The notes: generated by a model from the sequence alone, not told the origin. A stretch of DNA of 64,000 nt from Candidatus Zhuqueibacterota bacterium (GCA_049322915.1 JBMOPW010000011.1:1-64000), one strand, 5' to 3'; numbered from the stretch's first letter, positions 4,055 through 28,581 are shown. A program made the numbers and translations.

Positions 4055-5113
4055 CTATAATCCAAATGAAAACGAGAAGCTATGGGCCGAAGTCAAAATG
4101 CCAAGATCGTTGTACGAATAATCCATTCTCACTTTTGAGTCCATGCCGGGGATCTTCACATAGAATCCGGCGCCAAAAGCGAATTTAAGATCATAGATCA
4201 GTTCCAATTCTTCCGCCTTGATCAATTTGTCTTCATCGAAATCCTCGGCGCGGTAAATCAACCCACCGCGAAGCGCCAGCATATTGTTCCAGACGTACTC
4301 AGCGCCAAAAGTCGAGTACGGGCTGTTGTCGCGCAGATCGTTGAAATCCAGATTGCACGTCATTCGGGAAGCGCCCCTGTTCAGGACATCCATCGAAAGC
4401 CCGAATCTGAAGATGAGCGGGATGGACCAGCCCTCGGTTTCCAGGCGCGCCTCTTTTTCCGGATTGCCATCAATCACTTCATCGATATCGGTCTTCACAA
4501 TCTGGTCGGTCCCTTTGAGCGTCATTTTGCCGCCGAAATTGCAGATGCTCATCCCAATTTTCAGGCCATGATAGCCGGTATCGAACTGGGTGCCGGCATC
4601 GATGGCAAATGTACTGGCCGACGAAAAACTGATCGATTCGTGGATGAATTTTGCGCTGGCGCCAAGCTGGAAGCGGTCTGTCAATTGCCGGGCGTAGGTG
4701 ATGCCCATGGCCAGATCGCTGGAACTGAAGTAAGCGCCGGTTCCATCCGGTTCCAGAGGCGTCGTGGTCTCCATATCGCCCATGGACAACGAGACGAAAC
4801 TCAATCCAATCGTGCCAATGCGGCCGAGGGGATACACGACTCCGAGGAAATTATGTTTGATATCCAGTATCCAGTCCGTGTAGGAAATACCCACTTCCAG
4901 AGAAGTGATATTGGCAATACCGGCCGGATTCCAATAGAGCGCAGAGACGTCATTCACCTGCGCGACAAATGCACCTCCCAGTCCGTTGCCCCGAGAGCCG
5001 ACTCCGATTTTCAGAAAATTGGCAGCCGATGTGCCGGTGTTGTCGGTACCGGCAACAGCGACGGGAACAATAAACAGGAGGCTCAAAATAATGTATAAAA
5101 ATCTTTTTATCAT
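4055..5113 (-). CDS. PorV/PorQ-family (FadL-like) outer-membrane beta-barrel, module 3
   Basis: Signal peptide; GTSAANFLKIGVGSRGNGLGGAFVA and ALYWNPAG; alternating beta-strand C-terminus. Paralogous to 12081-13112 and 20962-22014. Confidence 0.85.
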   Translation of the reverse strand: MIKRFLYIILSLLFIVPVAVAGTDNTGTSAANFLKIGVGSRGNGLGGAFVAQVNDVSALYWNPAGIANITSLEVGISYTDWILDIKHNFLGVVYPLGRIGTIGLSFVSLSMGDMETTTPLEPDGTGAYFSSSDLAMGITYARQLTDRFQLGASAKFIHESISFSSASTFAIDAGTQFDTGYHGLKIGMSICNFGGKMTLKGTDQIVKTDIDEVIDGNPEKEARLETEGWSIPLIFRFGLSMDVLNRGASRMTCNLDFNDLRDNSPYSTFGAEYVWNNMLALRGGLIYRAEDFDEDKLIKAEELELIYDLKFAFGAGFYVKIPGMDSKVRMDYSYNDLGILTSAHSFSFSFGL

Positions 5114-5152
5114 TTTATATCCTCCAAAAAAGTAACACTGTCCGAAAGTGGT

Positions 5153-7993
5153 TTACTTGATGATGGCAAATTTGCCCATTTTTTCGCCGATGCCTTTGGC
5201 ATTCACATGGTAGATGTAAATTCCAAAAGCGACTTCCTGCTGGTTGTACGTCCATAAATTCCAGGCCTGAACCGCCGGGCCGCGATAGCCGGTGTCATTT
5301 GGTTCGTGATGCAATACCTGAACCAGCTCGCCGGAAATGGTGAAGATGCGAATTTCACATTCCTCCGGCAGATTGTGGAACTGGAGTTCTTTTATCCAGG
5401 GCTCGGTTTCGTACGCCGAGGTGACAATATACGGGTTCGGAATGACCGAAATCATCTCCAGGCTGCTCTCGGTTGCATTGGCCGAAGAGCCTCCGGTTGT
5501 ACGAAGCGTGTACGAATCAGCCGAAGTCAGCGGTTTGGTGCAGAATATCCGGGCAATGTCACCCTGCTTGGGAGCGACTTCCACCCATTTCGGATCGACA
5601 ATCGTCGTATCCACGCCATCGATCACCGTATCGATCGTAGCCGGCACCCGTGTCATTGTCAGCACCCACGTGAATTTGATCTGATTGTTGATCGTCTCGC
5701 GCAGTTTGATATTGTCGCCACTGGTCCATGCGGCCACCATCTCCGGAGTGGTATCTGCCGGATTCCTGTCGAATACGGCAAGGGCAGCCTGGCGGTTCAA
5801 TGTGGTATTCCAAATCTGGAATGGAAATACCATGCTCGCCGGGTAAAACGCAGTGTCGCCTGCAGCATTGAATCGGACTTCATAATCATAGGGATAATTG
5901 GAAGTCGGCGCGGCGGTGAATTGCCAGTTGCACTCACTGGAGTCTCCGGATTCCAACGCCCAATAGCTTTTTTCCGCGTCGAAAAATATCCCATCTTCGT
6001 CTATTAGCTTGAGTTGGAAACCATCGATGACCGGTGTATCTTCTTCTCCGTGTAAATTCGGGCAATCTTCAATCACCATTTTTCCTTTCAGGCTATCGAA
6101 CACGGAGAATGTCTTCACCCCGGGCGTGGACATATCATCGATTGTAATGGTATAGGCGTTGTCCACGATTTCGGTTTCGCTGAACACCTCCCACAGCAGG
6201 TCCACACTGGATACGCCGCTGGTATGGGCTGCGGCAAGTTCGGGACCGCTGTAGCCGGCCGCTTTTTTCTGGGGAATGACAGCCACGGTATTATCATTAT
6301 CAATAGTCGCGTTGGACAGTCGGGGATTTTCCAGCGGCACGACCGGCAGGATGCCCCAGACATCCTCATGATCGTAGGCGCAGACGGCATACCAGTATTC
6401 GACGCCGTTTTTCAGATTCCGATCGACAAATTTATGATTCAACCCGGTATCATCGCCGAGATAAAAATAGGGATCCAGCGTACTCACGCCGGCGATGTCA
6501 TTGACCAGATCGTACTGGGCAATGGGGACATAGCCGACCAGCGCGCCGATGGCATTGGTGATGGGCTCACCCCAGGAAAGACCGCGATCCGTTGACCGAT
6601 AGACTTTGTATCCCTCGAACGCATTGTTCCCGGTGAACTCATCGACAGAGCTTTCCGTGGGATCGGCGTTCCAGTATAGAGTGACGGTTTGATCCCCGGC
6701 CACTGCTTTGACGGACGGCATGGTGGAGGCATTCGGCGTCTTGTAATTCATATCATAAATGGTCTGACACAGTGCGGCATTGGCCAGTAAGTCCGCTTTA
6801 TTCGTGCCAAAAATATTGGCGAACGTGAATGTGACTGTCTGTCCCGGGGCCAGATCGAACGGGCCTGAGGCGTGAACCGACGCCACATCCGGGCCGTAAG
6901 TATTGGGCGTCTGTGTCCAGTCGTTGCTGTGCGGAGCGACATTGTGAATTGATTCAATGCCAATGGTCAACTCATTATAAATATCCGCCTGAGTCGGTAG
7001 CGCATAAAAATCCGTATAGGTAGCAATGGACAGCGTGGTCAACCCCAGTTCATTGCCATCCGGGCCCAGGGGGGTTTCCAGCATTTTCAAACCCTGCCAG
7101 GCAACGCCTTTTTCAAGGTAGCCTTCTGCTTTATCGTCGCCGTCCCAGATGTATAGGAAATTGCCCAGGACAGGATCATCATCGATGGAAATGTATTTGG
7201 CAAAATCATCTTCCCATTCGTTATTCCCCTCTTCCGGGCAATCCATCTCTGTGTAAATTCCGGCGTAGCAATCTTTAATCGTATCCGTCCCGGTATTGGT
7301 GAGATAGTATTTGAACACGATGATGTCCTCAGCCAACATACTGGAAAATTGAAGCGCGCGCCCGAAGCTCTTAATGTGCAACGGCGTTAGTTGCTGGCAA
7401 TCCTCGCAATCGTCGGTAGCCATCCAGACGCCTTCGGCGTCCCCGGCGACTTCACCATCGGATCGAACGCCGGGAAATCCGTCCAACCCAATTGGCCCGA
7501 CATCGTCTGGCCATTCGGCCGGCCAGGAAGCCGGCTTGTTGCTGAGCGCGATGCCATTATCGCCCACGCCGGAATCGTAGCCCGGCATCGGTTCAAAATG
7601 GCCTTCGTTATTCTCCTGAAATATACCGATACCGCCATTGGAGACGCGCTTTTCCCCATTTAAAATTCCGCCGATGAGTAGCGTCTGGCACCACTGGTAG
7701 GTGATGCTGGATCCGATGGGGTATTCGAATGTCAACATCTCGCGGCTGTAGCCCAATGTATTGGCATTATTTATTTCGAGCCCGATTTTGCCGACATCGA
7801 AGCGACCGTACTTGCGGTCATTGAAACTGGCTGGCTTCGATAAATTCAGGGCCGGCGTTTGCCCGTATTGTCGGCACAGCGCCTGATAGTATTCCAATTT
7901 AGTCATGCCTTTTTTTGCCTGCGCGACAAGTGCGTTTTGCAGCGAGAAAAGAAAGGCGATGATTAAAAACAGGAAGACTCCTTTTTTAATCAT
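5153..7993 (-). CDS. Large secreted protein with FN3-like domain and variant T9SS-like CTD, module 3
   Basis: Signal peptide (start after GGAGG). FN3-like AGDQTVTLYW..FEGYKVYRS..YWYAVCAYD. CTD ISVIPNPY..FHNLP..IRIFTISGELV..WNL..VAFGIYIYHV..GKFAIIK. Confidence 0.75.
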   Translation of the reverse strand: MIKKGVFLFLIIAFLFSLQNALVAQAKKGMTKLEYYQALCRQYGQTPALNLSKPASFNDRKYGRFDVGKIGLEINNANTLGYSREMLTFEYPIGSSITYQWCQTLLIGGILNGEKRVSNGGIGIFQENNEGHFEPMPGYDSGVGDNGIALSNKPASWPAEWPDDVGPIGLDGFPGVRSDGEVAGDAEGVWMATDDCEDCQQLTPLHIKSFGRALQFSSMLAEDIIVFKYYLTNTGTDTIKDCYAGIYTEMDCPEEGNNEWEDDFAKYISIDDDPVLGNFLYIWDGDDKAEGYLEKGVAWQGLKMLETPLGPDGNELGLTTLSIATYTDFYALPTQADIYNELTIGIESIHNVAPHSNDWTQTPNTYGPDVASVHASGPFDLAPGQTVTFTFANIFGTNKADLLANAALCQTIYDMNYKTPNASTMPSVKAVAGDQTVTLYWNADPTESSVDEFTGNNAFEGYKVYRSTDRGLSWGEPITNAIGALVGYVPIAQYDLVNDIAGVSTLDPYFYLGDDTGLNHKFVDRNLKNGVEYWYAVCAYDHEDVWGILPVVPLENPRLSNATIDNDNTVAVIPQKKAAGYSGPELAAAHTSGVSSVDLLWEVFSETEIVDNAYTITIDDMSTPGVKTFSVFDSLKGKMVIEDCPNLHGEEDTPVIDGFQLKLIDEDGIFFDAEKSYWALESGDSSECNWQFTAAPTSNYPYDYEVRFNAAGDTAFYPASMVFPFQIWNTTLNRQAALAVFDRNPADTTPEMVAAWTSGDNIKLRETINNQIKFTWVLTMTRVPATIDTVIDGVDTTIVDPKWVEVAPKQGDIARIFCTKPLTSADSYTLRTTGGSSANATESSLEMISVIPNPYIVTSAYETEPWIKELQFHNLPEECEIRIFTISGELVQVLHHEPNDTGYRGPAVQAWNLWTYNQQEVAFGIYIYHVNAKGIGEKMGKFAIIK

Positions 7994-8028
7994 AGTATTT
8001 TCCTCCATAACATTGATTGGTGTGCATG

Positions 8029-10809
8029 TTAAAATCCAGCAGCTAAGCCGACCTGAAACGTCCTCGGCGCTCCGTAGTAATAGGGAACATTGACCCAGTC
8101 CTGGGAATAGTCCCAGTTGGACGACACATCCGGCTTACCGGTCGATCCGTTCACAATGTAGACATTGATCTTGTTGAGGATATTGGTGAAATCCGCATAG
8201 AACGTGAGTTTGATCTTGTCCCAGGTGTAATTTTTAGTCGCCCGCAGATCGACATTCATTGTCCAGGGTTTCCGCGCGCTGTTGGGTTCGTCGATTCTCA
8301 GACCGCGACTGCTCAACGGCGTGTAGGGCAACCCGCTTCCATAGTTGCCGACGATATTGACAGCCCAATTGCCGGGCCTGCCAAAGTCGAGCACAAAATT
8401 CACCGTGTGCGTCTGATCCCAATCCATGGTGACCATCTTCTTGGGCGGATAGGTTTTATTCACGGAGAAATTATACCAGTCGTTGTAACTGTCAGTCACA
8501 TCCGCGGCATTTCCTTCCGCTTTGGACAGCGTGTAGTTGATCTGACCGCCGAAATATTTGGAGAATCGCTTGTTCAATGTAAATTCAACGCCCTTGGCAT
8601 TGGCGTAATCCTGATTGATCAGCCGATGGTATTGCACCGGCACCGCCTGATAACGCCGATAGGTTGTATAGTCATAGATATTTTTGAAATAGAACGTCAC
8701 ATCAATCGCAATGTCCTCTGCCAGTTTTGTCTCCAATCCCAACTCATAAGCGATGGTTTTTTCCGGCTTGAGGTTGGCGTTTCCCAGCGTCGTATAAATG
8801 CCGTCGATAGCCATGTTCGGGAACGGATAATACGGGTCGTCCATATTTTCCGACTCGAACAAATAGGAATACTGGGGAATCTGATAGAAATGGCCGTAGG
8901 CAAAATGCAATACAGCCTTATCCATCACCGGATGAGCAAATCCCAGGCGGGGACTGATGTACATTTTCTTCTCGGCATCCACCAGGTTTTTCGTCGATGC
9001 CCCGGTCAGCGGATCCAGCACATACTCGGCCGTGGGCTGATGCGGATCGACCAGATATTTGGAGCGCGTATTCATATAATCCAGGCGCGCACCCGCATTG
9101 ACGACGATGCCCAGATTTTCGATTTCCATTTTGTCCTGAATATAGGCGGAACCCTCGATGGGTTTGTGCCGATATTTTTGAACCGCAGGAGCCGCAGTGT
9201 ACGGGCCGCTCACGTAGTGATAATTGAGTTCCGTCTGCTTGAGTTCAAAACCCAATTTGATCTGATGCACTCTGGTGATCTGGCTGGTCAGGTCGAACTT
9301 GCCGGAAGTGATGGTGTTCTCCCGATCCGACCAGGTCGCTCCGCCGCCTGAAGTCCAGACAGAATCGACATCATCCCAGAATACGGAATCAAATTCATAT
9401 TCCTGATCCGATGGAGAAATGTCCGCCAGGCCGGTGTACACGCCATCTTCATTGAAAATCTGCCATTCCCCATTTTCGTCCTGCATGCTGAAAAAGTCCT
9501 CGGCCTTGTAGCGATAGGTCGAGCGATGCGTGTAAAAAATGGAGGATTTAATTGTATAGAACGTGCTCTGGCCCAACTGATGCATCAACGTCCCGTTCAA
9601 CAAATAGTTGTTGTCGTAATTGGTGGATGTATTTTGCGGGACGTACTTATTTGTGTGCGAATAATTCTTGTATTTTTGTTTTCCACCCACAGCGCCCAGG
9701 GTCAGCTTGATTGGCGTTATCGGGCGCAAAACGATCTTCGCGTTCGCGCGGCGTTCTTTCTGGAATGGCTGACCGGTCCAGCCGAGATAGGTGTCCGTAT
9801 CCAGCGCATCGCCGGCGACGAAGAACGTATTATTATGGCCCAGGAATGGAATGGGCCCGCTCAAATCAGCTTCGGCATGAAATTCATTGTAGTCAGTCAC
9901 GGTTTTGGTCTTCCGCTCCCAGAAACGGGGATCGTAAATATTCTGACCCGGCGTAGATTGGGGATTGTTGCTGGCGTTGACCAAATTACCGTCGCTGTCC
10001 ACCCAGCGACCGAACTCATCCAAATATTTAAAGATGTGATCATACTCATGGGGATTGACAAACTTATCCGTCAGAAAACGGATTCGACCGCTGTAATTAT
10101 TCTGCCCCTCTTTGGTGACGATGTTCAAAATGCCGGACATGGCCTCGCCGTACTCCGCGTTGAATGTTCCGGTCATCACGGCGAGTTCGGAGATACCGAC
10201 ATTGGCCACATCGCTGCCCATTCCGCCGAAGAGTGGATCTTCGACGTAAAAACCGTCGATCATATAGGCCAATTCATTGGACCGCCCGCCGCGGACATTG
10301 AACTCCCTGACATCGCCGGTGCCGCTTTCGACAAAACCAGCCGTGGTCACCAGCACTTCCTCGAATGTGGAGACCGGCATTTTATCGATTTCTTCACTGG
10401 TTGTCACCGCAGTCGATGACGTTACATCCTTTTCGATCATCGGTTTTTCAGCGACAATCTCGACCACTTCGCCTTCGATGACTGTCACTTCCAGTTCAAA
10501 ATCCAGTTTTGTGGTCAGGTCAACGATCACCTGGACCTCTGAAATGACCGTGGCTTTGTAGCCCATCATCATCGCTTTGACGCGATATTTTCCGGGCGGC
10601 ACATTGATGACGTAGAAATATCCATTCATATCTGTGGACGCCCCCATTGGTGTCCCCTCCAGAAACACACTTGCCCCGGGGAGAGGGGCGCCAGTCTGTT
10701 TATCTGTTACCAATCCGGAGATCTTTCCGGTCGTGCCACCCATAAGCATGGGCGCCACACAGAGAATCAACAGAAAAAACAGAGCAACACTCCTAAAAAC
10801 GTTGCGCAT
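8029..10809 (-). CDS. TonB-dependent receptor (CarboxypepD-reg-like N-domain, plug, barrel), module 3
   Basis: TTGKISG..LPGA.V, plug motifs NVRGGRSNE and TGTFNAEYGEAMSG, SPRLGFA, GNANLKPEKT, C-terminal Phe. Confidence 0.9.
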   Translation of the reverse strand: MRNVFRSVALFFLLILCVAPMLMGGTTGKISGLVTDKQTGAPLPGASVFLEGTPMGASTDMNGYFYVINVPPGKYRVKAMMMGYKATVISEVQVIVDLTTKLDFELEVTVIEGEVVEIVAEKPMIEKDVTSSTAVTTSEEIDKMPVSTFEEVLVTTAGFVESGTGDVREFNVRGGRSNELAYMIDGFYVEDPLFGGMGSDVANVGISELAVMTGTFNAEYGEAMSGILNIVTKEGQNNYSGRIRFLTDKFVNPHEYDHIFKYLDEFGRWVDSDGNLVNASNNPQSTPGQNIYDPRFWERKTKTVTDYNEFHAEADLSGPIPFLGHNNTFFVAGDALDTDTYLGWTGQPFQKERRANAKIVLRPITPIKLTLGAVGGKQKYKNYSHTNKYVPQNTSTNYDNNYLLNGTLMHQLGQSTFYTIKSSIFYTHRSTYRYKAEDFFSMQDENGEWQIFNEDGVYTGLADISPSDQEYEFDSVFWDDVDSVWTSGGGATWSDRENTITSGKFDLTSQITRVHQIKLGFELKQTELNYHYVSGPYTAAPAVQKYRHKPIEGSAYIQDKMEIENLGIVVNAGARLDYMNTRSKYLVDPHQPTAEYVLDPLTGASTKNLVDAEKKMYISPRLGFAHPVMDKAVLHFAYGHFYQIPQYSYLFESENMDDPYYPFPNMAIDGIYTTLGNANLKPEKTIAYELGLETKLAEDIAIDVTFYFKNIYDYTTYRRYQAVPVQYHRLINQDYANAKGVEFTLNKRFSKYFGGQINYTLSKAEGNAADVTDSYNDWYNFSVNKTYPPKKMVTMDWDQTHTVNFVLDFGRPGNWAVNIVGNYGSGLPYTPLSSRGLRIDEPNSARKPWTMNVDLRATKNYTWDKIKLTFYADFTNILNKINVYIVNGSTGKPDVSSNWDYSQDWVNVPYYYGAPRTFQVGLAAGF

Positions 10810-11785
10810 AAATCAGTCCTCCTATTTATTATGTGTGATAATTGAATTGATAACAACGAAGAGCGGTCCAGCGTTCACCTCCTTCCAGGGGATCCAATTG
10901 AGTTCTGCGTTCATAAAAACACCCTCTTCTTTTAACCTCAATCGTCCATTCGCATGCATCCCGGCAAATCGATCACAGGAGCCTGGTTCACAGATTGAAT
11001 GTCGTCGCATGTTTCGCAGACGAATCCGATAGCGCTCGAAATTGCCATCGATGACCGAGACTCACCTTTTGCGCATTGGACGGTCGGTGAACAGAATGTG
11101 CTTCATGGCAGCCAGCACAATGCATTGCGCCGGATTCCATCGCTCTGACACATGATGTGACTTAATTTTGTGGCAGTATGCACAGACTTGCCTGCTCGGT
11201 TCATTATCCCGGCGCTCGGGACAGACCGAAGCCGTACTGTCCGTCGAAAGCGTGTTGCAATATTCGAAGCGATTCGATCGGGGTGCAGGGTTTCGCGCAC
11301 TTCAATCACGAGTAAATCACTCGCTGCACGCAGTGGGCATTCCGGTTTTCCCGGCGCCGCGTCATTGCTACATCATCTTCACTGACTCAACTCAGACCGG
11401 GAATTTCACAGGCCGGGATTCCGCAGCGGTTCATTTCGCCCGCGCCGGCAGCATTCAAATAAGCTCCCTATAAGTAATTGAAAAAATGGCAAAAAATCAA
11501 TAACCCATTCAGGGCATTTTCATTCTATCGAGGGAAATTCGTGGCTCTCAATTTAAGTTTTTGGACATGGATGAATTCACAATGAACTGCGTTGCCAAAA
11601 GAACGCGTTAGAGGAGCGCGATATTGGGATGGCAGACCGACGTGACGGTCGTTCGGGTTCATCCCAATTTCCATTCGCCGCTGCTGAGCAAATACGGATA
11701 AAAAATATGGTCATCGTCCGGCCACTTGATCGCGCTGGATATTCATCCAGCGTCCGGGGAGTGGACGTGGCAATTCATTGTAAAA

Positions 11786-11992
11786 AAAGTTCGACACCTT
11801 GAATAGCCCCGACTTTTAAGTCGGCGAACAGAATTTTACCGTATATTTTTGAGCGTTAGCCGCTTTTCAGCGCCGACTCATTCCTATACTATGAAATTCA
11901 ATTTCATTTTTAAAACCACATTCAGCTTTTCAGAATCGATAATTTCAGATGTATCTTTTTCTTTGTGCCTTCGAGACTCTGAGGCTGATAAG
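11786..11992. repeat. Dispersed ~200 bp non-coding repeat, copy 1 (REP/MITE-like)
   Basis: Aligns with 40276-40643 through ACCTTGAA..GCCCCGACTTT.AAGTCGG, ACTCATTC.TATA..TGAAATTCAATTT.ATTTTTAAAACCA.ATTCA.CTTTTCAGAATCGATAATTT and TTGTG.CTT.GAGA. Confidence 0.8.
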
Positions 11993-12022
11993 TTTCAAAT
12001 ATGAAAGAACGTACCTGACATA

Positions 12023-12061
12023 AAAATCAAAAAGCTCCTCATCAGGGAGCCTTTTGATTTT
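12023..12061 (-). terminator. Intrinsic terminator ending the module 1-2 operon
   Basis: AAAATCAAAAGGCTCC-loop-GGAGCTTTTTGATTTT on the minus strand; the G-U pair favours minus-strand RNA. Lies 20 bp after the PorV stop. Confidence 0.75.
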
Positions 12062-12080
12062 GATGAACGATGGAGATATT

Positions 12081-13112
12081 TTAAAATTCAAAAGCAAGGC
12101 TGAACCGCTGCACTTCATTCAGAATGCCGAAATCAGCGAACGAGTAATCGATTTTCAGTTTGAAATTCCCAGGCAGAGAATAGGCGAGGCCGGCGCCTAA
12201 TGTCAGCCCTTCTTCGCTGTCTTTCATGTACAGATTCTTGTAACCGCAGCGTAAAAAAATCATATTCTTCAACGCGTACTCGGTTCCAATATTGATGTAC
12301 TCGGTATTGTCGTTGGGATGCATGGCGTCCATCGCGACAGTCCAGCGATAATTGTAATTATCGATCACGTTCATCGCCACGCCAAATCGGAACAGCAGCG
12401 GCAGAGACCATTTTTCGGTTCGCATGTTGCCCACAATTTTATTGTTATTGCCTTCTTTTCCAGGGGCAATATCGACAGGAATCTGGGTATCGCTGCCGAG
12501 CATCTGCATTTTATTGCCAAAATTGCTGATGCTCATACCGATGGTCATGCCCCGAAACTGGGTCGTGAACAGCGTGCCAATATCAAGGGCGATACTGGAT
12601 GCGCTCATGTGCCACAATTTCTGCTGAATATACTTTGCTGTAAAACCGATGGAAAACCGATCCGTCAGATTTCTCGCATACGATGTTCCAATGGCAATAT
12701 CGCTGGCTGAGAATCTTTCATCGGTACCTTCGGGGTAAGTGATGGTTCTCACTTCCATTTCATCCATGGACAACGATGTGAAGCTCAATCCCACAGCGCC
12801 GAAACTGCCGAGAGGAATGCACACGCCGGCATAGTCGAAATAGGTTTCCGCCAGCCAGTTGGTATGATTGAGGGTAACGCCGACACCGGTCAGTCGCGCA
12901 AGGCCAGCCGGGTTCCAGTACAGGGCTGTGGCGTCGTTCGCCAGAGCAACGAACGCGCCGCCCATGCCAATGGCCCGGGCGCCGACTTCAACTGCAAGGA
13001 ATGGCGCGGCGGTCGTACCCACTTTGGAAACATCCGATACAAATTCCTGGCCGATCACAGGAGTAAGCTGGACCAGGCACACAAAAAGTAAAAGGATAAT
13101 AATCTTTTTCAT
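12081..13112 (-). CDS. PorV/PorQ-family outer-membrane beta-barrel, module 2
   Basis: KVGTTAAPFLAVEVGARAIGMGGAFVA, ALYWNPAG, C-terminal RFSLAFEF. Confidence 0.85.
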   Translation of the reverse strand: MKKIIILLLFVCLVQLTPVIGQEFVSDVSKVGTTAAPFLAVEVGARAIGMGGAFVALANDATALYWNPAGLARLTGVGVTLNHTNWLAETYFDYAGVCIPLGSFGAVGLSFTSLSMDEMEVRTITYPEGTDERFSASDIAIGTSYARNLTDRFSIGFTAKYIQQKLWHMSASSIALDIGTLFTTQFRGMTIGMSISNFGNKMQMLGSDTQIPVDIAPGKEGNNNKIVGNMRTEKWSLPLLFRFGVAMNVIDNYNYRWTVAMDAMHPNDNTEYINIGTEYALKNMIFLRCGYKNLYMKDSEEGLTLGAGLAYSLPGNFKLKIDYSFADFGILNEVQRFSLAFEF

Positions 13113-13129
13113 CAGTCAAAACCTCCTAA

Positions 13130-16699: not shown

Positions 16700-16831
16700 C
16701 CAGAACCTCCGTGACAAAATGAACAATTCATACTGAACGTGCTTTCACACGGGTGTATTGGTTTAAATCAACGCATCGGTTCAAGCGACATACTTTGTGC
16801 CGGTATGCCAATTTCCCCGGGCACGCTCTGG

Positions 16832-19753: not shown

Positions 19754-19782
19754 TTCAATTCTCCTGGTATGAATGAATAATG

Positions 19783-20703
19783 TTAAAATGTTAATCCAAT
19801 GCCGCCCTTCACCATGAATCCGCCCAGATCCAATTCACCGATCTTCAACTCATCGAAAGCGCCCTCCGACACAAATTCGTTGACCGAATGCTTCTGCGTG
19901 AAGAATTGCCAGTCGCCATCGTCGATGTTAGCTTTGGCGTAATTGTAAGCGACCTCGACATTGAACGTCAGCAAGCCCATGTGGAAATTGCTGCCGAGAA
20001 TAAGGTGGTATCCCAATGGATTGGCATTGGTGCGGACATTGGCAAACAGGTCTGACGTGTTCACGGTGACGCTATCCGCGTAGACGCCTTTTCCGTTCGA
20101 GTAAATCGATTCGTACTGCCAATGAACGTTGCTCACGATCGATGAAAAATAGAAACCCAGTCCGCCTCCGACATACAGATCGAGCTTGTCGCTCATCGGG
20201 ATGAATGGGAGCGTGTATTGCACACTGAGCAACGCAGGATTCATGCGGATCTCCTGGGAATAATCCAGGGAATGGGTAATGTCAATATCCCGATCGGGCC
20301 AGACCGGCTCTTTGTCCTGAATCGATGCGAAGTAGCGCGTACTTGCATCGGCATTGAAATGTCCCACGGTGAAGGACAGCTTTAAATTCGGCTTGAGATA
20401 ATAATTGAGGCCGAAATTAATATACGACGAACCGCCTATTTCACCGTACCCCCCGGAGAGATTCTGAAAATCCGACGAGATAAGTTTCGCATCCAGTTGA
20501 GCGATGCCGTCGTTCAGTTGGGACAGGGATGGTTTGAAATAACCATAATCAACGAACAGCGCAATCTGCTTTGTCAGTGGCGTTTCCGAGCGCGCCTGCG
20601 GCTGCATTGCCTCAGGCGGATCTATTGGATTGGGCGCGGAAAGACCAATGCTGATGATGGAACAGACCATCAGAAGCGTGACAGTTAAGACATGTTTTAA
20701 CAT
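19783..20703 (-). CDS. Hypothetical outer-membrane beta-barrel protein (OmpW/OmpA-TM-like)
   Basis: Signal peptide; amphipathic strands (LYVGGGLGFY, FNVEVAYNY); C-terminal GGIGLTF. Confidence 0.6.
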   Translation of the reverse strand: MLKHVLTVTLLMVCSIISIGLSAPNPIDPPEAMQPQARSETPLTKQIALFVDYGYFKPSLSQLNDGIAQLDAKLISSDFQNLSGGYGEIGGSSYINFGLNYYLKPNLKLSFTVGHFNADASTRYFASIQDKEPVWPDRDIDITHSLDYSQEIRMNPALLSVQYTLPFIPMSDKLDLYVGGGLGFYFSSIVSNVHWQYESIYSNGKGVYADSVTVNTSDLFANVRTNANPLGYHLILGSNFHMGLLTFNVEVAYNYAKANIDDGDWQFFTQKHSVNEFVSEGAFDELKIGELDLGGFMVKGGIGLTF

Positions 20704-20927: not shown

Positions 20928-20961
20928 GGTAATATGTAATCTGCTTTGGTCAATACATGAG

Positions 20962-22014
20962 TTAGAATTCAATGCCAATTGAAAAACGCTGGGTATTTTC
21001 CAGCCGACCGAAATTGGCATAGGCATAATCGACTTTAAATTTCAGGCTGGGGCTGATTGAATAGGCAAAACCTAGTCCGACATTGGTTGGAACATAGTCG
21101 CCGCCGGTATCTTCGCCGAATACGCTGCCGCGTTCATCGTCGGTCAGAAACAGCGCCTGCCATCCCATGCGAATGAACGCCCAGTTGAAATAGGCGTATT
21201 CCATGCCGACATTCACGCTCTCGGAATTATCATTGGGATGAAGCGCATCCAGGGCGAGGGTCAATCGATTTTGACGGGTATTGATGGCTTCCATGGCAAC
21301 GCCCACGCGGAAGGTGATGGGCAGTGACCAGGATTCCATCTGCAGGTAGGCGGGAATCTGGTCATTGCTCCCATTGGCGTCCGGGTTGACATCGACGTAC
21401 TCCCGCGCATCGCGGCCGGACATGGCCATGTTGGGCCCAAAATTGGAGATGCTCATGCCAATTCTCATTCCGTTGAATTGGGTGGTGAATAACGTGCCCA
21501 CATCGAATCCCACGCCGTTGGCAGCCATGTGCCAGATATTCTGTCGGATATATTTCACACTCATGCCGATGGAGAAACGATCTGTCAGGCTTCGGGCGTA
21601 GCAAAGCGTCCCGGCAATGTCGCCGGCGTCGAACAGTTCGCCGGTGCCTTCCGGCTGCAACTCGGACCGCACCTCCATCTCACCCATGCTCACCGAGGTG
21701 AGACTCAAGGCCAGAGTTCCCAGATTGCCCATATTCACCGAGAGCGCAGCATAGTCGTAACTGATGTCGGCGAGCCACTCGGTGTGCAACAAAATGGCCT
21801 CGTTGTGGGGAAGTCGCGCCAATCCGGCCGGGTTCCAGTAGATCGCTGTGACATCGTTAGAAACAGCCACAAAGGCTCCGCCCATTCCCAGGGCGCGCGA
21901 GCCAACGCCGATTTTCAGAAACTGCGCGGCGGTGGTTCCGACCTTCGATATGGCGAAGCTATTGCCAGCCATGAATAATAAGATGCATATAAGAATCACC
22001 GAATTTTTTTTCAT
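20962..22014 (-). CDS. PorV/PorQ-family outer-membrane beta-barrel, module 1
   Basis: KVGTTAAQFLKIGVGSRALGMGGAFVA, AIYWNPAG, C-terminal RFSIGIEF. Confidence 0.85.
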   Translation of the reverse strand: MKKNSVILICILLFMAGNSFAISKVGTTAAQFLKIGVGSRALGMGGAFVAVSNDVTAIYWNPAGLARLPHNEAILLHTEWLADISYDYAALSVNMGNLGTLALSLTSVSMGEMEVRSELQPEGTGELFDAGDIAGTLCYARSLTDRFSIGMSVKYIRQNIWHMAANGVGFDVGTLFTTQFNGMRIGMSISNFGPNMAMSGRDAREYVDVNPDANGSNDQIPAYLQMESWSLPITFRVGVAMEAINTRQNRLTLALDALHPNDNSESVNVGMEYAYFNWAFIRMGWQALFLTDDERGSVFGEDTGGDYVPTNVGLGFAYSISPSLKFKVDYAYANFGRLENTQRFSIGIEF

Positions 22015-22099
22015 CTGAAACAAGCTCCTGTTTATTAAATCGGGTTAGTATGACCTCCCGGCATCAACCGCTGCAGGGAGGCGATAATATCCATTATTT

Positions 22100-25000
22100 C
22101 TACTTTATCACAGCGAATTTGCCAATGTGCTCTCCGACGCCGGGGGCATCGACATGGAAAATATAAATTCCATAGGCGACGTCCATCTGGTTTTTGGATA
22201 ATAAATTCCAGGACTCAGCGCCATCTTCGAAGGGACTGTCGTGATTGAGCGTTTGAACCAGTTCCCCGGCCAGTGTGTAGATGCGAATCGTGCACTTGGC
22301 CGGCAGATGAATGAAGTTAATTAATCGATCCCCACGACCGGATTGCAAATTGGGTTTAATTTCAAATTCCGATGCAGCGACATAGGGATTCGGCACCACG
22401 GCAATTTTATCCAATTCAGACGTGGCTGTCCTGGAATCGATATAGGCTTTCAATGTGGTGAACGAATAGCTGTCTTTTTTGCTGAACGGTTTCATCGTGT
22501 GAATATGGAAAATATCGCCGGCTTCCGGCGCAATTTTTTCCACGAAAATAGTGTCAATCGGGACTTTCAAAACAGCGCCTTCTTTATCCTTGACCGGGTA
22601 ACCCAATGCATTCAGGGAATCTTTGGTCACGATGCTGTCGCGCGGCGCGTAGAATTTCACCTGCCAGGTTCCACGCGGCCGATTATTCACGTACGTGACC
22701 GGGGAAATGACGTCGCCATCGCTGATGGAGGAATCTTTATCCGCATCGTTGAAGATGAATTCGGTCTGAACGCTGTCCGTAACATTCAGGACAAGGAATC
22801 GGGCTGGAATTTTCCCATTCACCGAAACCCCTGAAATCGTGTCGGTCAGGACAATGTAATAGTCGTAAGGCACTTCAACGCCCTGATTCGAATAGCGGGT
22901 CACTATTCCTTTGTAATTGCTGTTGCCGGAGATAAAGCGGCTATTGGCCTGATCCGGCGCCAGCGGATCGTTTTTCACACGGACGCGCATCCCATCAATG
23001 TAGGGATTATTGTCGGTGCCATCCAAAAACGTTGACTGCGGAATCAGGTAAAATTGATATTTCACATAGTAGTCGTTCTTCGGGGAAAGCGTGACCGTGT
23101 CTTTGATGACGACCCAGCCTTTGGGGCTATCCAGCGCGAATAACAATGTATCGTTGGGGAATTGGTAGGAGCTGTCAGCATTCCACAACTGGAAATATTC
23201 ATTATTTAATACATATTGATTCGCTAGATTGATCGATGCGATTCGCACGGAATCAATCGGGGTTGCCGGGTACGTCGTCGTGTCCCAGGCAATGTATTGG
23301 TAACGAACTGTGACTGGCAGTAATTCGGTAACAATATTATCGACATCCCACAGGCTGAACGTGGTGTCGCTGTCTGTTGAATCATTGAATGTCAGCGAAT
23401 AGGTATGGCCTTGTTTCACACGGGATGGGTCGATAAAATCAACGGATACATGTCCTGTGGCCGGGCCCTTGTGTTTCACCAGATCGTTTTCAATGGCTGG
23501 CGGCACGTATCCACTGGCCGGAGATTGCGGCGTGACAATTGCCGTATTGACCGTGGGGTAATAGGTGCCGGAATGAGCCGGATATTCGTCGAACACCCAG
23601 TCGCATTCTGTGGGCGGAATATCCGTGGAATCTCCGTGGTCGAAAGCGACGACAGCGTAATAATAGATCTGCCCGTTAGTCACCGTCGAATCAGTCCACG
23701 AGTGTTTCAATGGCGATTCATCATCAGCGCCCATATAGAAATGAATTCCCTCGGTCGTCTCGATGGGATGGGCGCCATACCAGCCGTCGCCGGGTTTATT
23801 GAATTGCGCCATGGGCTTGTACAATTTGGGATTCCCGTGGTTATCGGTAATCACGTAGGCATCACTCAGGCCGTGATCGGTTCCGCGGTAAATATTGTAT
23901 CCGGCAAAATCATAGCCGTGGATGGGGTCCCGGGAGCTCTCTGCGAAGTCATCCCAGTACAGTGTCACGCGACCATCTCCGGCAACAGCGTTGACGCGCG
24001 GCTTTTCCGGGGCTCGCGTGAACCGATAGCCTTCATTGTAGATGCGCTGAACCGTCTTTGCGCTTCGGAATAAATCGGGCAGGTCGTAGCCAAAAAACAA
24101 CGTGATGGAAAATCGCCGCTGATCCCCGGGTCCCATTTTAATCGGCCCGGATGCGTATTGAAATGCATTGTCCTTGGTCTGTCCGAATGTGGTATCGAAC
24201 GTGCCGGCGACCATGAGCTGCCAGGTATCTTCGTCTTGAAGCGGCGTCATGGCATTATATTCGTACACCGCAAACGAGGTCAAACCAATCTGGTCCGCTT
24301 CATCGAGATCGGTCTCGTCATAATTGGGTTCGCCGTGGGTGGGCGCTCCATCGCCTTCGCCGCGGTCCCAGGTCTCAGTGCCGTCCTGTACACCGTTTCG
24401 ATTCAGGTCTCCGCTGACGCCATCGGCGCCCACGTCGTCTGTCAGGTTATTCCAGTCCATATCATTATCCACGTCGTCCTGCATGGATTCATCCACCATT
24501 CCATCATCATCATTGTCTTTATTGTCGTAGGGTTCACCGGGGCTTTCCAGAAATTTGTATCCCAGGTATCCCGGCAGCCAGGCGTTCGGCTTGCCGCGAA
24601 AATCATGATCCCAGGCGTAAACCATGTCATAAAAAGTGTCCCACGCGCCATCGTCGTCATCGTAATCGCTGGCGCCGCCAATATGGGGATCGCCGTACAT
24701 TCCCAGATAGACTTTATTGAGCGTGTCGGCGCCGACATTTTTGACATTGTAGATGAAGAAAATACAGTCCTGCGCCAGTGTCTGATGCCACTGATAACCG
24801 CGCGATTCCACCTCTACACCCAGACCGCGGCGATTGGGATCTCCGATTGGATCCGGGAAAAAGGCAAATTCGGCGTTGGCAGCGTCGTCCATGACGTAGT
24901 AGCTCTCCTGGTCGGCGGTCTCGGAGTCAAGGCCGTATTCCGCGATCCACGAGCCATCCCACTCTGAGCTTCGATTGGGCCAGCTCACCGGCCATGTATC

Positions 25001-25489
25001 TTCGGCATCGCTCATGGCTATGTAAGGCTGGTCATATCTGGCGAAATTGGCCAACGGCTCGAAGCCCCAGGGTAATCCTGTCCGCGTGTCCGTATCGCCG
25101 CCCTCATCCAATCCTTCGGAAATTATGTGCCGGCGAAAGTTCAGCGTGTCCGTGACTTCGGCTGCGACCAGCACGCCAAATTCATACCCGTAATCGTAGC
25201 CAATGCCTTTCGGCCATACCAGCGACGCTGTGTTGCCCGGCTGGCCAATGGTGCCAAAGTTATAGAATACCGTGGAAACCTGGTTGCCGCGATGGAATCC
25301 CTCCTTGCGCCAGTCATGGCTTCCGAGTAATTTTTTTCTCAGACTTTTCTGCTGCTCACGCCATTCCTTCCACTGCTCCGGTGTTCCTTTCTTTCCGGGC
25401 CGAGGCGCTAATTGCTGAGCGGCTGTGAAGCTCGTTTGAATGAGTAGCATCGAAATGATGAGATATATCCAGCTAAGTTTTATTTTCAT
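22100..25489 (-). CDS. Large secreted protein with Asp-rich repeats, FN3-like domain and variant CTD, module 1
   Basis: Signal peptide after AAGGAG; HRGNQV..FYNFG, GYKFLESPG, DNDDDGMVDE, AGDGRVTLYW; CTD IAVVPNPY..FIHLP..IRIYTLAGELV..WNL..GKFAVIK. Confidence 0.75.
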   Translation of the reverse strand: MKIKLSWIYLIISMLLIQTSFTAAQQLAPRPGKKGTPEQWKEWREQQKSLRKKLLGSHDWRKEGFHRGNQVSTVFYNFGTIGQPGNTASLVWPKGIGYDYGYEFGVLVAAEVTDTLNFRRHIISEGLDEGGDTDTRTGLPWGFEPLANFARYDQPYIAMSDAEDTWPVSWPNRSSEWDGSWIAEYGLDSETADQESYYVMDDAANAEFAFFPDPIGDPNRRGLGVEVESRGYQWHQTLAQDCIFFIYNVKNVGADTLNKVYLGMYGDPHIGGASDYDDDDGAWDTFYDMVYAWDHDFRGKPNAWLPGYLGYKFLESPGEPYDNKDNDDDGMVDESMQDDVDNDMDWNNLTDDVGADGVSGDLNRNGVQDGTETWDRGEGDGAPTHGEPNYDETDLDEADQIGLTSFAVYEYNAMTPLQDEDTWQLMVAGTFDTTFGQTKDNAFQYASGPIKMGPGDQRRFSITLFFGYDLPDLFRSAKTVQRIYNEGYRFTRAPEKPRVNAVAGDGRVTLYWDDFAESSRDPIHGYDFAGYNIYRGTDHGLSDAYVITDNHGNPKLYKPMAQFNKPGDGWYGAHPIETTEGIHFYMGADDESPLKHSWTDSTVTNGQIYYYAVVAFDHGDSTDIPPTECDWVFDEYPAHSGTYYPTVNTAIVTPQSPASGYVPPAIENDLVKHKGPATGHVSVDFIDPSRVKQGHTYSLTFNDSTDSDTTFSLWDVDNIVTELLPVTVRYQYIAWDTTTYPATPIDSVRIASINLANQYVLNNEYFQLWNADSSYQFPNDTLLFALDSPKGWVVIKDTVTLSPKNDYYVKYQFYLIPQSTFLDGTDNNPYIDGMRVRVKNDPLAPDQANSRFISGNSNYKGIVTRYSNQGVEVPYDYYIVLTDTISGVSVNGKIPARFLVLNVTDSVQTEFIFNDADKDSSISDGDVISPVTYVNNRPRGTWQVKFYAPRDSIVTKDSLNALGYPVKDKEGAVLKVPIDTIFVEKIAPEAGDIFHIHTMKPFSKKDSYSFTTLKAYIDSRTATSELDKIAVVPNPYVAASEFEIKPNLQSGRGDRLINFIHLPAKCTIRIYTLAGELVQTLNHDSPFEDGAESWNLLSKNQMDVAYGIYIFHVDAPGVGEHIGKFAVIK

Positions 25490-25680
25490 CAGGCAAATTC
25501 TCCTTAACGATATTAGAAGATAAAGCGCGTGGTTAAAACAGAATGTCATTATGTTTTAGAATCGAATTTCAATCTATTCAGGCCTATCGTCCTGCTCCCT
25601 TTGCATCGCTTCGGGGACAGGCGAAATCCAGTCTCAGCGCTGGAATGCAATGGGCGGACGCGGCCAGTTACACCATCCGA

Positions 25681-28581
25681 TTAAAATCCCATCTGAACGC
25701 CCAATCGAACTGAACGGGGTCCGGAATAATAACCAGGCCGGGTCAGAAAATCATCCAGATAATGCCGGCCAAATTCATCGCCGTGGTCAGTGTTGGGATA
25801 CAGCGCATAGGTGGCCCGACCGGTATCTGAATACACGTACAGTTCATTGAGTCGGTCGAACAGGTTGTAAATTTTCAAAAACAGTACCATGTGCATTTTA
25901 TCAGAGAGATAAAAATCCTTGTGCGCGTGCAGATCGACCTCAATATTGGACGGTTTGCGTTCGCTGTTCTCAGCATCGACGCGGATGGCGTCGCGGGTTG
26001 GCGTGTATGGCAGGCCGGAGCCGATTCTTCCCAACAGGCTGAATCCCCAATCTTTGGGTTTGCTCACGGTTACCGAGAAATTCAAGGTATGCGTCTGATC
26101 CCAATCCAGAGGGACAACGCGCTTTTCCGTCTCTTCCGGCGGCACGGTTTGCAAATCATAGAATCGGGATAATGGGTCCGAAGAATTGCCTTCGGCGACC
26201 GAGTAGGTGTAATCGATTGAGCCGGAGATATAATTCGAGCGTCGTTTTTCTAGCGACAGCGTAACGCCTTTCACATTGCCAAAATCGACGGTGGCATAGC
26301 GGCTGTAATAATCGCCCCGTGTGTACAGCTCAAATATTTCCGTTCCCAACCAGTCTTTGATGTCTTTATAAAAACAAATGGCTTCCAGGCCAATGAACTC
26401 TGCGACCTGCTGCTGCAACCCAATTTCGTAGATCACTGTTTGTTGAGGATTCAGATCAGCATTGCCCAATACACTGTTGAAGCGGCCGCTGATGACCTCA
26501 AATTCCGGATTTGAATAAAGATAAGCGAATGGCGGAATCTGGAAGAAATGACCATACGAAAAGTGAATTGTGCCCTGATCCGTGATGGGATAGGCAACTC
26601 CCAACCGCGGGCTGACCTGATGCTTAACAGTGGCATCTTTTAATGCCAGATCATCCAGGGACGTCCGATTACCAGGGACAAGACGGCGGTCGCTGTTATC
26701 CTCAACCACCTTCCACGCGGAATTGAAATAATCGTAGCGCAGACCGACATTGACGATCATGTCTTTCAGTTCGATTTTGTCCTGAATATAAGCAGCTAAT
26801 TCTTTGGGATAGCGCCGATACTGATCGTTACCGGTGCTGGTCAGGGGCGTATAAATTTGGGGCATCCAGTTGGTTGTCTCGCTGATGTCGATGTAATAAC
26901 TATGGTAGAACAGTTCGTGGTATCGGCCTTCGAGACCCAATTTGAACTGATGCGTTTTGTTGAATTGGTTAGTGATATCAAATCGCAGCACACTTGTCTT
27001 GGAATTTCGATAGGTATGGGTTTTGCTCTGACCACCGCCGTAAAACTCATTGCCCGGGGTGCTGGAGATCAGAATGGTCGGAAGATAGCGTGGGTCGCGC
27101 CAGTCTTCGTACAGGTACTCTTTAAAATCATTTTCGTAGTGGGCGACTTTTATTTCATAGAACGCACTCTGTGCAAGCTGATGCGTCATGTCCAGTTTAT
27201 GCGATATGCTCGATTGGTAAGTCGTTGGAGTTCCGTCCGGATTGTACTTGAAATAATGGCTGTAATCTTTATGTTCAATATCATCCATCAGGAGGTTATA
27301 CCGGAAAATTAAGTTCGATGAGAGCCGATAGGTCATTTTCGCCTGGCCGGAAAATTTCCGGTACGGATTCATAGGCACCAGTTTATTGTCCCCGCTGAAG
27401 CCGTTATCGCGAATCCCATCCCGGTCGAAATCTCTGTATGGCTCTGTATCGCTGAAACGGCTATTGCCATCAAGGTCTTCGTACGCCTCGCCGTAATCCC
27501 ATGCGCCGTTGTTATTGGCGTCAGTGTACGGCTCAGCCAGATCATGGACGCCGTTATTGTTCCAGTCTGTGAATGGCTCCAGGAAATTAAGTCGGCCATC
27601 GTTGTACGGCGTGCGCGCTAAAATATCGGCGGAGGCTTCATCCACGTAAATTGCATCGCCGACTGCATGCTCACGCTTTCCGTACAGATAGCCGTTTTCA
27701 TCGTAATAACGGCCAGAGACAAAGAAAGAAAATTTATCGCCGGCAAAAGGCAACGGACCATCGAGACTGAAATCGAAGTTTTTTTGGCTGAATGGATCGA
27801 CATCATCCACATTGAGAAAAATATCTGTGTGGTCGCTCAACCGATCGCCCATATACGCGGAGAAATTTCCATGATAGTCCCGGCCACCTTCTTTGGTGAC
27901 AATATTCACCACACCGGACATGGCCTGACCGTATTCGGCATTGAACGTGCCGCTGACGACCTGCAATTCCTGGATGGCGGTATTTTCCACTTCGACTGCC
28001 ATGCCGCCCCAAAAGGGGTTAGAAACGGAGATGCCATCGATCATGTAGGCAATTTCATTGGCGCGACCGCCTCGGATGTGCATTGCGCCATCCGCGCCGG
28101 TCGTCACACCGGCTTTGGTCGATAAGACGCCGCGGAACGATTCCACTGGCATCTCTTTAATTTCAGATGACGTAACAATGGCGCGACCAGAAGTCAAGTC
28201 TTTCTGAACGATCGGGCGCTCGGCAATGATCACAACCTCTTCACCCAGGTCGACGACCGACTGTGACAGTTTGAAATTTATCTCAGAGGTCAATCCCACC
28301 CGCACCAGCACTTCCTTTTGCACCATGGTTGTGTAGCCCATCATCGACGCCCGGACGCTATAGGTTCCCGGCGGCACATTGATGATGTAATAGTAACCAT
28401 CCAAAGTAGTTGATGCGCCCATCATTGTGCCGTCAATGATGACATTAGCCCCCGGAAGCGGATCTCCGCTTTCGGCATCAACGACGAGGCCGCTGATCTT
28501 ACCAGTAACGTCTCCCAACACCATCATTGGGATCAACATGAGACAGATAAGGGACAAGACAATAACCTGTTTAGCAATCAA
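25681..28581 (-). CDS. TonB-dependent receptor with DxNxNG repeat insertion, module 1
   Basis: TTG start with GGAGGG; TGKISG, HIRGGRANE, SGTFNAEYGQAMSG, SPRLGVAYP, C-terminal Phe. Confidence 0.9.
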   Translation of the reverse strand: MIAKQVIVLSLICLMLIPMMVLGDVTGKISGLVVDAESGDPLPGANVIIDGTMMGASTTLDGYYYIINVPPGTYSVRASMMGYTTMVQKEVLVRVGLTSEINFKLSQSVVDLGEEVVIIAERPIVQKDLTSGRAIVTSSEIKEMPVESFRGVLSTKAGVTTGADGAMHIRGGRANEIAYMIDGISVSNPFWGGMAVEVENTAIQELQVVSGTFNAEYGQAMSGVVNIVTKEGGRDYHGNFSAYMGDRLSDHTDIFLNVDDVDPFSQKNFDFSLDGPLPFAGDKFSFFVSGRYYDENGYLYGKREHAVGDAIYVDEASADILARTPYNDGRLNFLEPFTDWNNNGVHDLAEPYTDANNNGAWDYGEAYEDLDGNSRFSDTEPYRDFDRDGIRDNGFSGDNKLVPMNPYRKFSGQAKMTYRLSSNLIFRYNLLMDDIEHKDYSHYFKYNPDGTPTTYQSSISHKLDMTHQLAQSAFYEIKVAHYENDFKEYLYEDWRDPRYLPTILISSTPGNEFYGGGQSKTHTYRNSKTSVLRFDITNQFNKTHQFKLGLEGRYHELFYHSYYIDISETTNWMPQIYTPLTSTGNDQYRRYPKELAAYIQDKIELKDMIVNVGLRYDYFNSAWKVVEDNSDRRLVPGNRTSLDDLALKDATVKHQVSPRLGVAYPITDQGTIHFSYGHFFQIPPFAYLYSNPEFEVISGRFNSVLGNADLNPQQTVIYEIGLQQQVAEFIGLEAICFYKDIKDWLGTEIFELYTRGDYYSRYATVDFGNVKGVTLSLEKRRSNYISGSIDYTYSVAEGNSSDPLSRFYDLQTVPPEETEKRVVPLDWDQTHTLNFSVTVSKPKDWGFSLLGRIGSGLPYTPTRDAIRVDAENSERKPSNIEVDLHAHKDFYLSDKMHMVLFLKIYNLFDRLNELYVYSDTGRATYALYPNTDHGDEFGRHYLDDFLTRPGYYSGPRSVRLGVQMGF

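Follow-up and report, generated by a model that had tools for sequence, protein, structure and literature searches.

A conserved gene triad of receptor, large secreted protein and PorV-like barrel appears to encode a SusD-independent outer-membrane uptake module

What does a three-gene outer-membrane unit do for a bacterium that carries it in three consecutive copies? The question is raised by a stretch of 64,000 nucleotides from Candidatus Zhuqueibacterota bacterium (GCA_049322915.1 JBMOPW010000011.1:1-64000; hereafter the window), in which positions 4055-28581 hold three units, A, B and C, each encoding a TonB-dependent receptor, a large secreted protein and an outer-membrane barrel of the PorV/PorQ family, in that order. 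A first-pass annotation, made from the sequence alone, had read the units as an analogue of the SusC/SusD nutrient importer coupled to a type IX secretion system (T9SS). Our analysis leads to a related answer. We estimate at roughly 55% the probability that each unit is a copy of a conserved outer-membrane nutrient-uptake module working by the full mechanism set out below. That the triad is a SusD-independent uptake module of some kind is very probable, and it appears to let this bacterial group capture and import polymers with no need of the SusD lid of Bacteroides.

Open reading frame (ORF) calling placed all nine genes on the minus strand, with the three units running co-directionally at 28581-20962, 19753-12081 and 10809-4055 (Table 1), just as the first-pass annotation had them; intergenic gaps within units measure 17-131 bp. 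Identity among the copies is 34-41% for the receptors and 39-50% for the barrels. Large proteins A and B are 39% identical over their full length, while A and C align in pieces at 24-36%; in the alignments, large protein C has a shorter middle region and is missing most of an Asp-rich insert. Judged from these sequences, units A, B and C are old paralogues. No SusD, carbohydrate-active enzyme (CAZyme), peptidase or regulator family was found by Pfam among the scanned ORFs of 4055-28581, in agreement with the earlier statement that these 24 kb hold no such genes.

Relatives of the large protein are numerous. At 90% clustering we counted 1381, from KSB1, Calditrichaeota, Marinimicrobia, Fidelibacterota and FCB-group records, and every source that names one labels it hypothetical. 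A scan of 1.84 billion representatives returned 602 clusters (50% identity) at E<=1e-30, 2426 at 1e-10 and 4403 at 0.001. For a survey of loci, one genome per species was taken and 647 confirmed places were reduced to 74 loci, drawn from KSB1, Calditrichota, Neomarinimicrobiota, Ignavibacteria, WOR-3 and Fidelibacterota records, whose ORFs were searched with hidden Markov models built from the window's own nine proteins. These loci hold 87 large-protein genes. Wherever the sequence left room, a receptor lay upstream (65/65) and a barrel downstream (65/65), and each of the 48 genes with room on both sides belonged to a full triad on one strand (48/48). The gene order of the triad is not due to chance and is conserved elsewhere. 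The three-unit array itself recurs in synteny in G036, a genome from a different genus of this family, with blocks at 66-71% nucleotide identity, and the triplication is therefore old.

The unit is also multiplied within its host. The host genome (G000; 6.25 Mb in 45 contigs, 96% complete) contains 18 complete triads, two that are cut by contig ends, and variants. One variant, at C7:51541, has a receptor and a barrel and no large protein; another (L090, at G000:C26:170109-188203) has four large-protein paralogues of 1000-1044 amino acids in tandem with no barrels of their own, followed by a 23S-rRNA-IVP-like gene and then a receptor. Over the 18 triads the distance matrices of the three gene families correlate with Mantel r of 0.82, 0.81 and 0.87 (each p = 1e-4), and over 63 triads from all genomes in hand with r of 0.83-0.91; the phylogenetic congruence that the first-pass annotation had looked to is thus borne out, and the unit duplicates and diverges as a whole. 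Full-text literature searching found no description of a unit composed of such a receptor, a secreted protein with a T9SS C-terminal domain (CTD) and a PorV-like barrel. A paper on beta-1,2-glucan in Ignavibacterium names a TonB-dependent transporter among the genes of its cluster, for which close homologues supply no biochemical evidence. The triad is a real, ancient and widespread feature, and one that is apparently undescribed, as far as literature searching reaches.

We then asked which families the three proteins belong to. All three receptors carry the CarboxypepD_reg, Plug and TonB_dep_Rec_b-barrel domains in Pfam. Against the SusC/RagA model TIGR04056 they score 51.9 (A), 64.1 and 72.7 bits, with a cut-off of 368.25 and a match confined to model positions 2-210, so that they are SusC-sized, as the first-pass annotation states, but fall short of the SusC/RagA family model. 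All three barrels match PF19572 (PorV) in Pfam and lie well above the cut-off of 90 bits of the PorV/PorQ family model NF033709 (scores in Table 1), which bears out their designation as PorV/PorQ-like. They remain below the equivalog cut-offs for PorV (79-100 bits against 250, NF033710), PorQ (93-101 against 220, NF033711) and PorV2 (94-121 against 325, NF052325). The only barrel in the host genome that reaches the PorV equivalog cut-off (258.6 bits against 250) is encoded elsewhere, at G000:C44:52867-53985 (L092:6865-7986), where it adjoins a T9SS-dependent M6-like inactivated metalloprotease (NF052323, 623 bits). Since this housekeeping PorV is present and the triad barrels fall below the equivalog cut-offs, the latter are extra paralogues. 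Other parts of the secretion system are also encoded: the host genome has one match to SprA_N and two full matches to PorU (869 and 819 bits), together with dozens of matches that cover the CTD alone.

None of the three large proteins matches a Pfam family. Their translated N-termini are hydrophobic, with what read as Ala-X-Ala-like cleavage sites and no lipobox, as in putative Sec signal peptides, and the Atlas record of large protein A begins at residue 21. An AlphaFold2 model of large protein A, built from 54 sequences, is all-beta, with a mean predicted local distance difference test (pLDDT) of 80.4 and a predicted template-modelling score (pTM) of 0.66; its regions are listed in Table 1. 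The VIA fold search, which really tested residues 59-596 only, matched the N-terminal supersandwich to 9ju0 (Z 20.1, root-mean-square deviation 3.0, 252 residues), 1ulv (Z 19.5) and 1lf6 (Z 19.4). These best matches are N-domains of the glycoside hydrolase families GH15 and GH94; GH65 N-domains were also found, and galactose mutarotases followed at about Z 13. Foldseek on the whole model returned mostly FN3 and Ig arrays with template-modelling scores <0.25, reached a probability of 1.0 only for rows of GH94 N-domains, and included PorZ (5m11, E 6e-5) in its list. A search of the PDB by sequence with the large-protein profile gave no hits. Among the 18 paralogues, conservation is highest in the tail (0.53) and the FN3 domain (0.51), lower in the supersandwich (0.36-0.38), and lowest in the insert (0.27, 53% gaps) and the middle region (0.24, 41% gaps), a pattern consistent with docking parts that stay the same and a binding part that varies. 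By eye, Asp/Asn/Gly-rich stretches in receptor A (27400-27600, residues ~330-395) and in large protein A (24290-24530, residues 340-420) resemble calcium-binding thrombospondin-type-3 repeats; they are mostly missing in unit C.

The tail is what would connect this protein to type IX secretion. A profile-profile comparison (hhalign) of 32 large-protein tails with 13 canonical type-A CTDs of the same genome gave a probability of 95.9% (E 6.2e-9, 52 columns). By this comparison, which is the only one to recognise it, the tail is a divergent type-A T9SS CTD; it differs from the other CTDs of the host genome by an insert and by an end motif of its own. No type-B CTD model appeared among the NCBIfam matches at E<=0.01. 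With lengths of 951-1198 amino acids, the large proteins agree with the earlier account of a 950-1200-residue protein with a CTD in each unit. When barrel A (residues 26-353, 60-row alignment) and tail A (residues 1036-1149) were modelled as a complex, the score was 0.90, against 0.00 for the best of three controls; at least 93% of contacts are shared between runs, and the pLDDT of the partner is at least 78. Of 157 solved complexes, 116 attained that mark, as did 2 of 215 mismatched pairs; these counts apply roughly here, since the alignments were our own. The CTD-PorV interface proposed in the first-pass annotation is therefore predicted for unit A, and in the model the pair looks like a PorV-CTD pair, a predicted interface and not proof of binding.

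How the barrel treats this tail is the point on which two other explanations turn. In the first, the barrel is a shuttle and nothing else: a private carrier between translocon and PorU, where the large protein would lose its tail and be either attached to lipopolysaccharide or set free, to work near the receptor without being held by the barrel or joining a receptor complex. The homology of the tail to cleavable type-A CTDs and the two PorU sortases of the host genome speak for such a route, as does the lack of covariation between tail and barrel beyond their shared history; canonical PorV is moreover a shuttle according to the review PMC10202324. The same source puts forward, as a hypothesis, that cognate PorV-like barrels may protect a CTD from cleavage. 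A housekeeping PorV already exists in this genome, some 20 private barrels would be costly as mere carriers, and few regions of the large protein are as well conserved as the tail, which differs from other CTDs in its insert and end motif. We consider a pure shuttle unlikely.

In the second, the barrel anchors nothing and touches the tail only transiently; it would be a channel of the FadL type or else, like BamG, help to assemble the receptor or the large protein. PorV is itself a member of the FadL superfamily, and the barrels show weak matches to Toluene_X and BamG (NF053685, E 4.9e-7, 29 bits against a cut-off of 250). PMC12578637 describes how the loops of BamG hold a surface protein. With 203-249 bits, however, the PorV/PorQ model lies far above the BamG and FadL matches, and the predicted tail-barrel interface likewise stands against a channel or helper, which we regard as very improbable.

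Evidence for uptake comes from the neighbours of the other copies. The other 15 triads of the host genome and three further loci are flanked by 132 ORFs, of which we scanned 101; the remaining 31 were short or duplicated or lay outermost. Both C35 triads are accompanied by a GH13 amylase, a T9SS-tailed CBM20/DUF4961 protein (CBM, carbohydrate-binding module), LacI and an SSF symporter. The triad at C34:312001 is flanked by two GH10 genes together with CBM9/CTD proteins and an SSF symporter, and the C40 triad lies with a GH16-malectin-CTD protein, a CBM9/CTD protein, GH5 and an SSF symporter. Further triads adjoin GH38, DUF4185 and AraC (C34:647399), or LacI, a CBM9/CTD protein, GH94 and a PF10091/CTD protein (C14:905336). 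Peptide-related genes occur as a tricorn-type S41 protease at C16:135870 and as M20, S51 and DcuC at C16:209968. Proteins with a GWxTD domain stand beside the C2 triad, together with an OPT transporter, beside the triad at C14:548596, together with a GDSL/TPR protein, and beside the variant at C7:51541. Given these enzymes, CBM/CTD proteins and LacI/AraC regulators, the sister triads lie in loci that resemble polysaccharide-utilisation loci (PULs).

A similar picture emerges from other genomes, where 101 ORFs in 18 loci were scanned. Glycoside hydrolase or phosphorylase genes occur in 7 of these loci (GH94 in two, and GH130, GH3 with GH16, GH13, GH18 and GHL10 in one each), so that the CAZyme and regulator context lacking at the three window copies is found at the sister triads and at 7 of 18 loci elsewhere. 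Murein-turnover enzymes were found in 7 of the 18 loci as well: Amidase_2 in two, Amidase_3 with AnmK, NamZ with S66 and M15, S13 with an AmiA-like protein, and M23 in two. In 10 of the 18 an FG-GAP (FG-GAP_3) protein adjoins the triad, as it does at unit A. At L036, L056, L066, L070, L072, L032 and L040, triads that are nearest to unit A in subtype have peptidoglycan-turnover genes as neighbours, comprising muramoyl-alanine amidases, AnmK, NamZ, LD-carboxypeptidase, D-Ala-D-Ala peptidases and M23. For the unit-A-like subtype this is a lead from other genomes, a hint that fragments of cell wall may be imported.

The same neighbourhoods bear on a third explanation, in which the large protein works at the surface as an enzyme of some unrecognised family, for instance a lyase or glycanase with the supersandwich as its scaffold, and cuts polymers for the receptor instead of binding them. 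Some rows of the fold search have a possibly catalytic matched part (GH174 fucanases at Z 14.4 and 12.3, a PL26 lyase at Z 13.9), and a 54-sequence alignment shows invariant acidic residues at E215, D222, D261, D298, D299, D314 and E335. These residues are not kept in the 18 paralogues, in which 26 positions are conserved in at least 17 of the 18, mostly in the FN3 domain and the tail. The best fold matches are non-catalytic N-domains, and neither the fold search nor the AlphaFold2 model of large protein A yielded a recognisable catalytic domain. The loci already carry secreted GH enzymes of their own, and the same domain stands beside genes for starch, xylan, beta-glucan, mannan and peptide use, for all of which one active site is unlikely. 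An enzymatic role is accordingly improbable in our view.

We therefore return to the uptake module and propose the following mechanism. The large protein would be exported by Sec and then taken across the outer membrane by the T9SS, directed by its divergent type-A CTD. The adjacent PorV/PorQ-family barrel would receive it there and, by analogy, retain its tail: in Porphyromonas gingivalis, the CTD of a T9SS protein is kept as an anchor on a barrel in the pairs PorQ-PorZ and PorV-PorU, as reviewed in PMC10202324. The all-beta protein would thereby be displayed beside or above its receptor, presumably in contact with it. Its variable part may capture a polymer or oligomer and hand oligomers to the receptor for TonB-driven import, and the three window copies may take different substrates, as the first-pass annotation suggested. 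In this arrangement the large protein would be a functional counterpart of a surface partner of the SusD or SusE/F type, anchored by a barrel instead of a lipid.

Comparison with known systems places the triad between nutrient import and secretion. As in SusC/SusD (RagA/RagB), the gene for a TonB receptor, which bears a carboxypeptidase-regulatory-like domain at its N-terminus, lies directly upstream of the gene for a surface partner, and like the SusC/SusD cores of PULs the sister triads occur in many copies per genome, among secreted glycoside hydrolases, CBM proteins and LacI/AraC regulators. Unlike SusC, the receptors score 52-73 bits against a cut-off of 368, and no SusD adjoins them. SusD is an alpha-helical, TPR-like lipoprotein, whereas the partner in the triad has ~1000-1200 residues, is all-beta, belongs to an unannotated family and carries a T9SS tail; the triad, moreover, has an obligatory third gene, the barrel. 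With PorQ-PorZ and PorV-PorU the triad shares the pairing of a PorV/PorQ-family barrel with one T9SS protein, the tail of which weakly matches the C-termini of PorZ and PorU. It differs in that its pair is linked to a receptor, exists in ~20 copies and lies in nutrient loci, not secretion loci, and in that its barrels stay below the PorV, PorQ and PorV2 equivalog cut-offs. SprF-SprB of Flavobacterium johnsoniae (PorP/SprF-like) also combines one cargo with one adjacent barrel, according to the reviews PMC10202324 and PMC11205867. In the triad, by contrast, the tail is related to type A, not type B, the barrel is of the PorV/PorQ family, and the cargo is linked to a receptor and not to gliding.

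Several results weigh against the uptake module as we describe it. The first group concerns SusD. The host genome itself speaks for the module: PF07980 (SusD) has no match anywhere in it, and the control in B. thetaiotaomicron responded. Of 61 sampled genomes of the phylum, 54 encode the large protein and 25 SusD; 23 have both, 31 have the large protein without SusD, 2 have SusD without the large protein and 5 have neither. The 23 of 54 large-protein genomes that also have SusD show 1-5 matches. In 101 genomes of Bacteroidota, the phylum of an Ignavibacteria metagenome-assembled genome, the large protein is found in 44, SusD in 48 and both in 23; none of the 17 genomes with at least six SusD matches has the large protein. 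These samples consist of related genomes, and the pattern is descriptive: SusD and the large protein overlap, but neither is expanded where the other is. We had considered a strict exclusion of SusD by the module, and co-occurrence in 23/61 and 23/101 genomes rules it out; the module thus does not strictly take the place of SusD.

A second group concerns secretion and the tail. Models of GldM (TIGR03517, PF12081) and GldL (TIGR03513) had no match in the host genome, a negative that carries no information because their controls were silent or below cut-off; either these proteins are too diverged for models trained on Bacteroidota or they are lacking from the contigs. The genome search for T9SS components suggested at first pass thus recovered SprA, PorU and PorV and drew a blank for GldL and GldM. 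PF18962 in Pfam and TIGR04183 in NCBIfam leave the tail undetected, and ~20 residues of the CTD, in the loop 1055-1073, are modelled at low confidence. Given the receptor, tail and barrel distances correlate with a partial r of 0.04, that is, with no link beyond shared history; the large protein and the receptor, given the barrel, have a partial r of 0.67, and because longer proteins give less noisy distances we draw nothing from comparing the two. The structure of F. johnsoniae PorV has been solved (6h3i, 8gl6 and other 8gl* entries), and the score of the complex may therefore reflect likeness to a known PorV complex.

Finally, the window triads have near them just an FG-GAP/CTD protein, a GDSL lipase and a GWxTD protein, and with no enzyme or regulator as neighbours the uptake role of the window copies rests on their sister copies. 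Taken together, the idea of a T9SS-coupled SusCD analogue retains gene order, co-divergence, the presence of SprA, PorU and PorV, the absence of SusD from the host, a predicted interface and PUL-like sister loci. Tethering on the barrel, capping of the receptor and a division of substrates among the window copies stand in it as proposals; the receptors fall short of the SusC/RagA model, and SusD is not excluded from the wider group.

A bolder version of the proposal is conceivable, and we offer it tentatively, as something we would sooner doubt than assume. Receptor, large protein and barrel might form one stable three-part machine, a counterpart of SusCD that does without a lipoprotein in KSB1, Calditrichota, Marinimicrobia, Ignavibacteria, WOR-3 and Fidelibacterota, and its genes would mark polymer-utilisation loci in these groups in the way that susC/susD pairs mark them in Bacteroidia; the subtype in the window, with its FG-GAP/CTD neighbour, may then import murein fragments from dead bacteria. 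PULs are now found by their susC/susD pairs, an approach blind to whole phyla that abound in sediments, in the deep ocean and in hot springs. Should the triad be the uptake core of these phyla, it would serve as a marker for polymer-utilisation loci in these phyla, a protein family of 602 clusters so far called hypothetical would gain a role, and type IX secretion would have a new use, the building of a nutrient importer rather than the release of enzymes or adhesins.

Table 1. Genes and regions of the three units and their surroundings (positions in the window; residues refer to large protein A)
Feature	Position	Strand	Remarks
Unit A TonB-dependent receptor	25681..28581	-	966 aa; N-terminal CarboxypepD_reg, plug, 22-strand-type barrel (Pfam)
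Unit A large secreted protein	22100..25549	-	ORF 1149 aa; likely start M21 at 25489
Large protein A, galactose-mutarotase-like supersandwich (model)	residues ~55-565		Asp-rich insert 340-420
Large protein A, FN3 (model)	residues ~515-640		
Large protein A, variable beta region (model)	residues 641-1035		further beta sandwiches
Large protein A, putative CTD	residues 1046-1149 (bases 22103-22414)		
Unit A PorV/PorQ-family barrel	20962..22023	-	353 aa; NF033709 232.7 bits
Accessory outer-membrane beta-barrel gene	19783..20703	-	306 aa; 29 bp upstream of receptor B
Unit B TonB-dependent receptor	16832..19753	-	973 aa
Unit B large secreted protein with CTD	13130..16726	-	1198 aa; weak match to PorZ C-terminus (NCBIfam)
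Unit B PorV/PorQ-family barrel	12081..13112	-	343 aa; NF033709 249.1 bits
Spacer between units B and C	10810..12080		1271 bp, no ORF >132 aa
Unit C TonB-dependent receptor	8029..10809	-	926 aa
Unit C large secreted protein with CTD	5153..8008	-	951 aa; weak PorZ and PorU C-terminus matches (NCBIfam)
Unit C PorV/PorQ-family barrel	4055..5113	-	352 aa; NF033709 202.7 bits
FG-GAP repeat protein with canonical T9SS type-A CTD	29342..32317	+	divergent from unit A; Pfam
GWxTD-domain protein	2428..3993	-	downstream of unit C; TIGR04514

The surroundings of the three units add some detail, of which the accessory barrel gene and the spacer between units B and C are absent from the first-pass annotation. 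The accessory 306-residue barrel gene matches no Pfam or NCBIfam family and groups with OMP_b-brl-like barrels in the Atlas. It is kept at the same place in five other loci (L001, L002, L003, L027 and L094) at 29-36% identity by tblastn, and may be a fourth component of unit B. That spacer finds no match at the nucleotide level in the G036 contig, which is otherwise syntenic, and since Rfam gave no matches at the gathering threshold over the whole window, no RNA explains it. Promoter scans came close to shuffled sequence (17 against 11.0, standard deviation 3.0, and 28 against 15.1, standard deviation 3.8) and terminators were at the expected level, so that these counts leave the transcription units undefined. 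The three listed holders of unit A, from three studies, are all DNA datasets, one of them possibly the source of this DNA, with no RNA dataset among them. Far from the triads, the window also encodes on the plus strand a CotH kinase-like protein with an LTD and a FlgD_ig tail (44336-46756), and then a fusion of GH9 and polysaccharide deacetylase (49819-52362).

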